From a virus (Duplodnaviria > Heunggongvirae > Uroviricota > Caudoviricetes), in IMG/VR virus record IMGVR_UViG_2534682157_000019: a stretch of 64,000 nucleotides of DNA. One strand, 5' to 3'. The position numbers were made by a program. This document shows positions 1-3,000 of this stretch, one piece after another (the first letter of the stretch is position 1; every line of letters begins with the position of its first letter).

Positions 1-3000
1 TCCATTACAAAGCGCGTACCCACTCCAGCTACGGCAATATTGATGTGTTACAGCAGGCCTGCCCACAAGAGGTGTGGATCAACCCCATTGATGCTCAGGC
101 ACGCGGTATCCGTCATGGCGATACCGTGCGGGTATTTAACAATAATGGAGAAATGCTGATTGCCGCAAAAGTGACTCCGCGTATTCTGCCTGGCGTTACC
201 GCCATCGGGCAAGGTGCGTGGCTTAAAGCGGATATGTTTGGTGACCGGGTCGATCACGGCGGCAGTATCAATATTCTGACCTCTCACCGCCCTTCACCGC
301 TGGCAAAGGGAAACCCGTCGCACAGCAATCTTGTCCAGATCGAAAAGGTTTAAGGAGTAGCCCATGACCACACAATATGGATTTTTTATCGATTCCAGCC
401 GCTGTACTGGCTGTAAAACCTGCGAACTGGCGTGCAAAGATTTTAAAGTTGGTTACGTATCGTTTAAAATCAATTAGATAGCCCGTCATTTCTGCGCTCA
501 CACGTCCCAACATTGAAAAACATGCAAAGCTTTGTAAGCCGATGCAAAGCTTTGTGTGTCTCACTTTTGTCCCAATACCAATCCGAATCCACCCTTTGTC
601 ATCATTGAGAAATGGCAAGGAAGAAAAGGATGTTACTGCACGATTTGACAAATCCGCCAGAGCTATCGCATACTGACCGCACTGAACTTACAAGCGGTCA
701 TCCGCACCCGATAGCTTTGCGGCTTTTTTATGCCCGTAATGCGGCATAGTCACATCCGTACAAAGGTCGGGTGGAGAGGCGTAATACAATACCCGTAAGG
801 GGAATATGCCCAGAGCTTCTTGTAAGGCTCAGTTGACACCCGACCAACCAGCTACTAACTGGTTGAGCTAACTAAACTTACAAGGAGGTCATCATGACTA
901 GTCAACTCATCCCCGTATTCAACGGCACTATCGCCAACGAAACCACTCTTCTCGTTAATGCCCGTGATTTACATACTTTTCTTGGGGTAGGTAAACGCTT
1001 TGCGTCTTGGATTACAGAACGCATTGCTGAATATGGTTTCGTTGAAAATCAGGACTATATTTTGGTTTCCCCAAATCGGGAAATCAAAGGTCGAGGAGGC
1101 GATCGCCGTAGCAAAGACTATCACCTCACCCTCGACACAGCCAAAGAAACGGCGATGGTTGAGCGTAACGAAAAAGGCCGCCAGATCCGCCGCTACTTCA
1201 TCGAGTGCGAAAAGAAACTTCGCAACATTCAGCCAGTACAAACTGAGCTGCAATTCACAGCCGAGGAAATCATCCTCCTCTGCTACATGCAACTCTGGAT
1301 GGAAAAAGCCCAGGACCTCAGCAAACACCTGTATCCGATCATGAAAGAGCTGAACTCATCATACACGAACAAGCTGTATGACATTGCGTTTGAGACTATC
1401 TACATGGTGACGAAGAACAGAGATGCGTTACTGAGGGAGGCTGCACAGCTTGACCAGTCAAGTTTCGTTGTCCAGCGGGCCAGACCAATGCTGAAAAGCC
1501 TGCGGGCAAGGCAATTCGAATTCTAAAACCAAAGGAGCTTCGGCTCCTTTTTTCATGCCTGAAGGAAAGGAAAATGGCAGATATCATCGACAATGCCGCT
1601 GAAATCGAAGAATTGCAGCGCAATCTCTCCCTGCAAAAATACAAATCCGATAGTAATGCCCCATCTGCTACTCATTGTTGCGAGTGTGGCGATCCGATAG
1701 ATGAGCGGCGACGCCAGGCTGTTCGTGGATGCCGAGCTTGCGCAAGTTGCCAGCAGGATATTGAACTTATCAACAAACAGAGAGGTGTGAAGTGAACGGA
1801 GTTAGCTATCAAGCACTGCGGCTGGCGGCAGAAAATGCAACACCAGGCGAATGGTGTACTGATGACTATGGGGTTATTGCCAATGCCGGACTGAACGCCA
1901 ATTACTACATAGCATCATGCTCAGGACCAGATAATCGCGCCAATAAGCGATTCATAGCAGCAGCCAATCCGGCTACCGTCTTGGCACTGCTGGATGAACG
2001 GGAAAGAAACCAGCAATACATCAAATCACGCGACCAGGAGAACGAGGATATTGCGCTAACGGTAGGGAAGCTGCGCGTTGAGCTGGAAGCAGCAAAATCA
2101 AAACTCAACGAGCAGCGTGAATATTACGAGGGTGTAATCGCGGATGGAAGTAAGCGCATTGCAGAACTGGAGAAAAGCGAAGAGCAACTCATTAATGAGC
2201 GTGACCATGCTGAGTCTGCTTTAGCTGATATGTACTTTGCAGCAACCGGGGATAGGCCTGAGTGGAGTAACTGTTTCAGTTTTTCAGATGCTGTCGATGC
2301 CGTGGTTGACAGAATTGCTGATTTAGAAGCTAAACAGCCATCGCCAGTAGTGCCGGAAGGACTGGTTAAAGCAGTGCGCTTCTATGAGCAGGTAAAACGT
2401 GAGAATCCGCCAGCCGAAACAGGTGCATGGAAAGATGCTGTTGACTGGGTACTCAAAGAGGCTTGTCAGGTTGTAAACATTCGCATCAAAGGAGAGTGAT
2501 ATGATTCACTACCACGGTGGGCCTATTACTCCTGATACGTGCGCAATGAGAGCATGGAAAGGGCGACATGCGTTTATCAGTTTTGCGCATTCAGGCCAGA
2601 TCAATCTCGCTGCTGAATACTGTCAGTCGTTCGCGCTGGACAACGGTGCATTCACCGCCTGGAAAGCAGCTGGCAAAAACAAAATCGACTGGAGCGATTA
2701 CTACGAGTTTGTTGCTCGCTGGAAGAATCACCCAGGATTCGATTTTGCCATTATCCCGGATGTTATTGATGGCGGAGAGGAGGAAAATGATGCGCTTCTG
2801 AATGAGTGGCCTCACGGAAAACTAGCTGGCGTTCCAGTGTGGCACATGAATGAAAGTGACGAGCGATTTATTCATTTGTGCAATGAGTTTCCGCGAGTGG
2901 CTATCGGTAGTTGTGGCGACTATGACGTAAAGCGCCCAACTCTTGCGGTAGCCAGAATGAAAGACCTGATTCGTCACATTGTTGATGAGCATGGTCAGCC

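Follow-up and report, generated by a model that had tools for sequence, protein, structure and literature searches.

Two principles in the biology of phage antirepressor genes are already known: their protein domains are swapped within a Bro-N network, and some of the genes are controlled by c4 or IsrK RNAs. This study concerns three antirepressor-type genes, here called A, B and C, in the IMG/VR record IMGVR_UViG_2534682157_000019, a stretch of 64,000 nucleotides (nt) referred to as the window. The three proteins have related C-terminal tails and different N-terminal heads. The repeated and shuffled unit is the whole cassette (promoter, RNA leader, head and tail), not the protein domain alone. 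We read the three genes as RNA-gated, recombining antirepressor cassettes in two arrays of one prophage, and give this reading a probability of about 0.7.

The immI region of phages P1 and P7 has the order c4 RNA, icd, ant (Citron and Schuster 1990, cited in PMC7313666). As summarized in the citing work, a constitutively transcribed leader gives rise to a structured small RNA (sRNA) that gates the antirepressor gene. The loops of the RNA are complementary to boxes upstream (a1 b1) and downstream (a2 b2, at the ribosome site), and in the same summary box differences of a few bases define heteroimmune specificities. CI of phage P4 follows the same pairing logic as the cassettes described here. 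The isrK-orf45-anrP region of Gifsy-1 has a short, terminated leader of the IsrK type with read-through into an antirepressor-like gene near Q (Hershko-Shalev et al. 2016, PMC4825925), and AnrP encoded behind IsrK induces Gifsy-1 (PMC4825925). In APSE phages, a BRO gene is preceded by c4 and isrK, and an ORF6N gene by sRNA-Xcc1 (PMC7313666).

On the protein side, a 2023 study of the Bro-N network lists AntA, Bro-N, ORF6N and P22_AR_C as freely recombining domains, and notes C4/isrK immunity RNAs inside 'Bro zones' of satellites (PMC10111431). What the present locus adds to that network is mechanics at the nucleotide level for one phage lineage, namely cassette borders, two array sites, a copy number of 1-3, and crossovers that map to promoter box and tail. 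Ant of phage Phi24B carries a P22_AR_C-type tail on a different N-terminus and, like B and C, is encoded by an early-right gene upstream of Q. Deletion of this nin-region gene weakens late-promoter activation: after induction, pR' activity falls to 27-56% of the wild-type level, and complementation with the gene succeeded (PMC3064807). Between the tails of Phi24B Ant and P22 Ant the identity is 82%, whereas the tails described here match the Pfam family weakly (~31 bits). Unlike Phi24B, this locus has three paralogues with three heads, known from sequence alone.

Open reading frames (ORFs) were found at exactly the positions and on the strands that the initial annotation gave for the three genes. 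Pfam matches were counted only above the curated cut-offs. The heads match AntA in A (E 4e-27, 95 bits), Bro-N in B (E 4e-9, 37.5 bits) and ORF6N in C (E 5e-20, 72 bits), so the head names assigned from the raw sequence were right. The tails match P22_AR_C at 31.1 (A), 30.8 (B) and 30.6 (C) bits against a cut-off of 22.4. With both a P22_AR_C tail and a network head, all three belong to the P22_AR_C-tailed proteins of the Bro network. Each ORF is built from five to six conserved start codons (MT[S/T]Q[L/I]), an exchangeable head of ~110 amino acids (aa) and a common tail of ~90 aa. The N-terminal halves had been called unrelated, and pairwise comparison of the heads agreed, its sole signal being a marginal match between B and C (23% identity, E 0.02). 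Remote homology among the three heads was rejected on the same comparison. PHROG cross-matches among the heads appear to reflect lumped multi-domain families.

The last 91 codons of A and C are 90.8% identical in nucleotides and 91.2% in amino acids. The corresponding values are 66.7% and 67.0% for A and B, and 62.3% and 61.5% for B and C. Local nucleotide alignments gave 90.9% over 276 nt (A/C), 77% over 300 nt (A/B) and 82% over 123 nt (B/C), and the A/C homology begins abruptly at the domain border (QFTAEE). A near-identical C-terminal domain had been claimed for all three proteins, and a similar terminator behind all three genes. The former statement holds for A and C (91%) but not for B, which is 62-67% identical to either. 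The latter holds for A and B but not for C. The hairpin AAAGGAGCTTCGGCTCCTTTTTT is not present 3' of C, where the promoter and leader of B start 9 nt past the stop codon. The AAAGGAGCTTCGGCTCCTTTTTT terminator closes an array, not every gene.

The upstream regions of A, B and C also align with one another. Each leader has, in order, a promoter-like site, a short stretch with an intrinsic terminator, a structured RNA and the ribosome site (Table 1), and the short-leader layout of cassette A is conserved across 14 cassettes. The structured RNAs of A and B match sRNA-Xcc1, an Rfam family hitherto treated as a trans-acting sRNA of Xanthomonas integrons. Their layout is that of C4: an outer stem around two hairpins, then a 3' tail (ACCAGCU in A and CCCUGCU in B, with a model consensus of CCCuuuu). 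Cassette C has a genuine Rfam C4 match, a direct likeness to immI, and a weak c4-a1b1 match in its leader. It is also the only cassette with an isrK match above the gathering score, as in Gifsy-1; the isrK match is absent from the leaders of A and B, which have an analogous short leader and terminator.

Table 1. Coordinates of the cassette elements and boundary features within the window.
Feature	Position	Strand	Details	Basis
ynfG 5' remnant (host gene)	365..448	+	ends in att core TTTAAAG (442-448)	sequence read; boundary opposite int
Cassette A promoter-like site	645..674	+	TTGACA-18-CATACT; GATTTGACAAATCCGC box in common with B	consensus scan
Cassette A short leader	687..729	+	b1 box CTTACAAGC 687-695; terminator hairpin CCGCA..TGCGG + T6, 702-729	complementarity
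Cassette A c4-class sRNA	765..853	+	Rfam sRNA-Xcc1; recognition loop CUUCUUGUAAG 816-826	71 bits against gathering score 53, E 5e-13
Cassette A b2 box	877..887	+	CTTACAAGGAG; overlaps Shine-Dalgarno of gene A; 11 bp possible with loop	complementarity
Gene A	894..1526	+	210 aa; AntA head (aa 21-92), P22_AR_C tail (aa ~118-210)	ORF call, Pfam
Array-closing intrinsic terminator after A	1531..1553	+	AAAGGAGCTTCGGCTCCTTTTTT	identical to one after B
Array-closing terminator after B	45334..45356	-	AAAGGAGCTTCGGCTCCTTTTTT; directly upstream of ninB	same sequence as after A
Gene B	45361..46005	-	214 aa; Bro-N head, P22_AR_C tail	ORF call, Pfam
Cassette B c4-class sRNA	46048..46138	-	Rfam sRNA-Xcc1; loop GUUCUUGUAU 46086-46077	68.6 bits against gathering score 53
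Cassette B promoter-like site and short leader	46158..46253	-	promoter-like site 46253-46224 (11/12 consensus); b1 AUACAAGC 46198-46191; leader terminator 46185-46158	scan, complementarity
Gene C	46262..46927	-	221 aa; ORF6N head, P22_AR_C tail	ORF call, Pfam
Cassette C C4 antisense RNA	46980..47063	-	single-stranded GUUCCAACC complementary to a1, and a2 (46978-46970)	Rfam C4 71 bits against gathering score 45, E 1.6e-13
Cassette C IsrK-type short leader and terminator	47089..47162	-	a1 box GGAUUGGAAC 47143-47134	Rfam isrK 54.9 bits against gathering score 50
Cassette C promoter-like site	47169..47198	-	TTGACG-18-TATATT	consensus scan

Every antirepressor gene in seven related loci, truncated ones included, has such an RNA upstream (13 sRNA-Xcc1 plus one isrK + C4). 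Escherichia coli EDL933 has a single sRNA-Xcc1 copy, directly upstream of the 933W Ant gene. RNA-seq and Ribo-seq of EDL933 list sRNA-Xcc1 as an abundant RNA with a ribosome coverage of 0.02 (PMC5331693), so the RNA is made in a lysogen and is not translated. In the literature the EDL933 RNA figures only as an Rfam match, without a link to the downstream gene.

Truncated, tail-less AntA heads of ~90 aa stand first in the array in many related phages (L003 2393-2662, L004 2393-2659, L005 429-713, L006 435-722 and L008 1748-2035). Each still lies behind its own sRNA-Xcc1 element, and the small RNA may have a value of its own that keeps it in place once the gene is lost.

Pairing between the RNAs and their boxes was judged by explicit helix searches and covariation counts, in place of cofolding; in RNAduplex-style cofolding of the sRNA with the translation-initiation region, long interior loops dominate the structures. 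The loop CUUCUUGUAAG of cassette A can form 11 bp with CUUACAAGGAG at the Shine-Dalgarno sequence, and 8 bp with the copy of the box in the short leader. Cassette B has the same pairing geometry with a different address, its loop GUUCUUGUAU pairing with the b2 box AUACAAGGAC (46023-46014) at the Shine-Dalgarno sequence. In cassette C, GUUCCAACC pairs with GAUUGGAAC on either side of the C4 RNA. The a2 box of C lies ~43 nt upstream of the ATG, whereas the b2 boxes of A and B overlap the Shine-Dalgarno sequence.

The 14 Xcc1-type cassettes fall into six address classes, in which the loop, the upstream box and the downstream box change in concert. Cognate helices measure 11, 10, 11, 8, 7 and 7 bp in the six classes, against 4-8 bp for non-cognate combinations. 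For loop:b2, 85% of cells were paired, compared with 39-64% when the sequences were slid. Compensatory changes were seen in 6/11 pairs, and the covariation score was 0.485 against 0.158 in shuffles, with the observed score reached in 0/500. For b1:loop, 94% were paired against 29-56% slid, with compensatory changes in 5/8 pairs and 0/500 shuffles reaching the observed score. With its own loop and box address for each cassette, the paralogues would be gated separately.

The arrangement thus compares closely with immI. A c4-family RNA (C4 in C) or an RNA of the same layout (sRNA-Xcc1 in A and B) lies upstream of the ant gene on the same strand, and its loops are complementary to boxes on both sides, the downstream one at the ribosome-binding site. 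Several features differ. None of the three start codons has a short ORF next to it, so there is no icd-like leader ORF here, and in A and B it is the ant gene's own Shine-Dalgarno sequence that the box overlaps. The A and B RNAs, as members of sRNA-Xcc1, stand outside the Rfam C4 clan, and the setting is a lambdoid phage with two arrays. The translationally coupled orf45 of Gifsy-1 was not found either: the sole same-strand ORF upstream of C (46977-47198) ends 50 nt before the ATG at 46927, which leaves no AUGA coupling of the orf45 kind. Three LexA boxes (CTGT-N8-ACAG) occur in the window, none less than 3 kb from a cassette. The LexA-box promoters of the SOS-controlled small antirepressors (186 Tum, N15 AntC, Gifsy GfoA/GfhA) therefore have no counterpart here, and the cassettes are not of that type.

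Cassette history was then read from tails and sister prophages. AntA-headed proteins from other prophages of E. coli (P0120, P0108) have tails 100% identical to that of C, and the ORF6N-headed protein P0121 has a tail identical to that of B. In a tree of 122 close C-domains at least six switches of head type are needed. The proposal of domain shuffling within the prophage is therefore supported by comparison of the sequences, which also indicates that the shuffling is recent.

The initial annotation had also pointed to a potential for internal recombination, and the sister arrays bear this out. In the nin region the array reads ORF6N-BroN here and ORF6N-AntA-BroN in the relative L010. The extra unit in L010 is cassette A (window 642-1526, 97%), flanked by a duplicate of the C-type tail on one side and by the shared GATTTGACAAATCCGC promoter box on the other, the promoter box of cassette A being the 5' crossover point. 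In three other relatives (L011-L013) the array is down to one unit, an ORF6N head on a B-type tail. The junctions of the nin arrays map inside the C-domain and the shared promoter box. Arrays at the ynfG end comprise 1, 2 or 3 units in sister prophages. Strain RM10410 has antA' (truncated)-antA-BRO-TraR, including a 1,204-nt block that is 96% identical to window 46537-45334 (C tail, leader B, gene B and terminator), and strain 1504D004 has antA'-ant. Gene A is itself mosaic. Its tail resembles C at 86 informative sites, but ~10 nt before the stop codon the sequence switches to the B type, which continues through the terminator. A separate observation concerns the Stx2a phage Stx2a_F451 (L008), where an array of three antirepressor-type genes at 691-2904 lies on the int/xis side of the early-left region, a third array location beside the far att end and the nin region.

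These data bear on the possibility that the paralogues arose by an old duplication in situ, followed by divergence or chance retention, with no ongoing exchange and with repeats that are recombinationally inert. B is merely 62-67% identical to A and C, and its longest identical runs (17 nt with C, 23 nt with A) are short for RecA-dependent exchange, as such a history would have it. The heads, however, come from three different Pfam families and identical tails occur on different heads elsewhere. The block of 1.2 kb at the other array site in RM10410, the arrays of one, two and three units with junctions in tail and promoter box, and the mosaic of A likewise speak for exchange. We regard an old, inert duplication as very improbable. 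The comparison shows promoter and leader on one side, and C-domain and terminator on the other, serving as the homology arms. Unequal and ectopic homologous recombination adds, deletes and moves whole cassettes, and re-pairs heads with tails.

The window is a segment of the E. coli chromosome with one ~63.6-kb 933W-like Stx1c (Shiga toxin, Stx) prophage inserted in ynfG. The ynfF gene ends at 353, and the integrase gene (62837-64000) is the last gene of the window. The 7-bp core TTTAAAG is also present at the int-side junction of a sister genome, NZ_AP045170.1, whose annotation shows ynfG split by the same single prophage. From int onwards that prophage reads int-exo/bet/gam-N-cI-cro-cII-replication genes-TumE/A-ORF6N-BRO-ninB...Q-stx1c-lysis-933W-type virion genes; hok-DUF551-Ea22-TraR-antA then lies on the opposite strand, adjoining the ynfG stump. 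The two array sites are thus far apart: A stands alone just inside the att site opposite int, and C then B lie between the replication genes and ninB.

One alternative is that a second prophage left behind gene A together with the genes beside it (TraR/DksA-like, Ea22-like, DUF551, hok), or that this block came about by an inversion between A and C; A, B and C would then not all be part of a single functional phage genome. Genes A and C are inverted repeats ~45 kb apart (276 nt at 91%, longest identical run 38 nt), and the A block reads from the prophage end towards the interior, opposite in strand to the late genes. Yet the same block is found in the same place and orientation by att in VT2-Sakai and other 933W-like Stx phages, sequenced phage genomes among them. 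The near-identical phage record phiSTEC1589-Stx1c (63,085 bp) contains both loci, matched at >99%. No A x C inversion product was seen in the loci examined, and the gene that comes after the C-type tail in RM10410 is TraR, not ninB. In the circularized genome, the block follows int on the same strand, with A a few hundred bases downstream of int, a position like that of the lambda b region. The orthologue of A is H0160 of VT2-Sakai (similar to L0142 of 933W), at the same spot beside the att site; the two cassettes are 90% identical in nucleotides from promoter to terminator and differ in recognition address (CAAAUAAG against CUUACAAG). Homology of cassette A to VT2-Sakai-type Stx phages starts exactly at its promoter-like site (645). 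Given the orthologous att-side placement and the orientation shared with int after circularization, A, B and C are all part of one phage genome. The second-prophage or inversion origin was rejected on these grounds, and is the most improbable of the alternatives considered.

Close to cassette A, a strong hairpin of 17 bp (ACATGCAAAGCTTTGT..GCAAAGCTTTGTGTGT) followed by a T-rich run occupies 520-559 (+), ~70 nt in from the att core. Once the genome is circularized it would fall just downstream of int across attP, where it might work as a retroregulation or terminator element of the sib/tI kind. PhiR5_2 and POCJ13 share the hairpin, and VT2-Sakai-type phages, whose homology begins only from 645, do not. 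The block that starts with cassette A closes with a sok antitoxin RNA match (111 bits) and a hok/gef-type gene at 4018-4192 (+). Within it, a 251-aa ORF (2501-3256, +) matches only the first half (11-267 of 509) of PHROG 887, 'queuine tRNA-ribosyltransferase'. The ORF may be a truncated Tgt/DpdA-like DNA-modification gene, and the stretch is annotated as frameshifted or as pseudogenes in relatives. Elsewhere, the stretch from Q to the toxin genes contains two tandem copies of Rfam STnc100 (41111-41324 and 41386-41597, -; 198 and 139 bits).

What the proteins do was approached through the common tail. AlphaFold models the tail alone as four helices with a predicted local distance difference test score (pLDDT) of 90, and the best viral structural match (BFVD) is a P22 antirepressor C-domain protein. 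Foldseek searches of the tail model against the PDB returned generic helical bundles only (E > 0.8), and a PDB sequence search with protein A returned a chance match only (E 0.075). A single-sequence tail search of a representative library of 1.84 billion proteins gave 14 matches, several of them chimeric ORFs. In that library the P22_AR_C tail is also joined to other partners, namely the head-binding domain of the P22 tailspike, P22 gp7 and the N-terminus of replication protein O (proteins P0125, P0132 and P0130, from other genomes). Such fusions are probably scars that deletion or recombination left in remnants of P22-like prophages.

The proteins may instead be DNA-binding regulators or effectors of the Bro network with other jobs, an account that would leave the RNA gating and the exchange unchanged. 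They could act as transcription factors for phage or satellite genes, as triggers or inhibitors of competing mobile elements, or as growth inhibitors, the three heads binding three DNA or protein targets unrelated to the repressor of this prophage. Precedents exist, since the Bro network includes CapR of the phage-inducible chromosomal island-like element (PLE), which represses a helper capsid gene, and Eta/Kil of P4 (PMC10111431), and baculovirus BRO proteins bind DNA according to work cited in PMC7313666. The lack of an informative solved relative of the tail in the PDB sequence and Foldseek searches, and of a LexA box near the cassettes, fits this account as well. However, the nearest tested relatives by tail (P22 Ant, Phi24B Ant) and by RNA leader (P1 Ant, Gifsy-1 AnrP) act towards derepression or induction, and B and C occupy the slot of ant in Phi24B, upstream of Q. 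We therefore consider a non-antirepressor role unlikely, though much less so than the two alternatives above.

Several other points weigh against the reading of A, B and C as RNA-gated antirepressors, besides the network members with other roles. The name antirepressor rests on annotation and on a tail that matches P22_AR_C at only ~31 bits, and the full-length model of A, built from a shallow alignment, had a pLDDT of 44 and was discarded. The direction of RNA control is uncertain, because P1 c4 represses while the short IsrK RNA of Gifsy-1 activates anrP translation in trans, and the sign of control here may differ from that in Gifsy-1. The addresses of A and B differ at two positions only and allow cross-pairing of up to 8 bp, so their independence is not assured. 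Promoter consensus matches are no commoner than in shuffled sequence. RNA-seq contigs of a related strain cover the leader and gene of A, but strand, RNA ends and reliable depth cannot be read from them. By analogy with the tested relatives, we put the chance that A, B and C are true antirepressors at about even, and hold the description of cassettes with RNA gates to be likelier than that.

Each unit of the two arrays thus consists of a predicted sigma-70-type promoter, a leader with b1/a1 and a terminator, a c4-class RNA, a b2/a2 box and the head-tail ORF. Under the RNA-gated reading, the cassette promoter would in a lysogen make mostly the short leader and the processed small RNA, a direction taken from P1 c4 and Gifsy-1 IsrK. 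The RNA loop, in a pairing backed by covariation, would bind b2 and hide the ribosome site, keeping the protein off. After induction, judging from gene order, N-antiterminated pR transcripts would traverse C and B, and pL transcripts would run through int and across attP into A, only after excision. Such read-through transcripts would be expected to swamp the RNA. The proteins might then help to inactivate the repressor and speed lytic commitment, as suggested by Phi24B Ant and P22 Ant. A shared effector or oligomerization module would then reside in the common tail, and the heads would be alternative modules for target recognition. Since A lies across attP from int and would be reachable by pL transcription only after excision, cassette A could be an excision-dependent commitment switch in 933W-like Stx phages.

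For sRNA-Xcc1 of enterobacterial phages we offer a tentative proposal, at somewhat less than even odds. It would be a c4-like immunity RNA that acts in cis or trans to gate the Bro-network gene next to it. Addresses of a few nucleotides, of which the 14 cassettes show at least six classes, would put several paralogues in one phage under orthogonal control, and would let whole cassettes, from promoter to tail, move between the two sites without cross-talk.

As an evolutionary case, this prophage is a tidy example and not a surprise, because domain swapping and RNA control are both known principles. What the locus contributes is the nucleotide-level picture for 933W-like Stx phages, together with comparative evidence that points to sRNA-Xcc1 RNAs as c4-like gates with orthogonal addresses. 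A likely role is thereby assigned to sRNA-Xcc1, a highly expressed and unexplained small RNA of enterohaemorrhagic E. coli. Toxin release is governed by the induction of Stx prophages, and few inputs to that switch are as poorly understood as the antirepressor-type genes. As this locus shows, a 933W-like phage can carry as many as three of these genes, spread over two sites, and each would sit behind an antisense-RNA lock of its own. Simple homologous recombination reshuffles the set of cassettes among closely related strains, which offers a testable handle on why sister Stx phages differ in inducibility.

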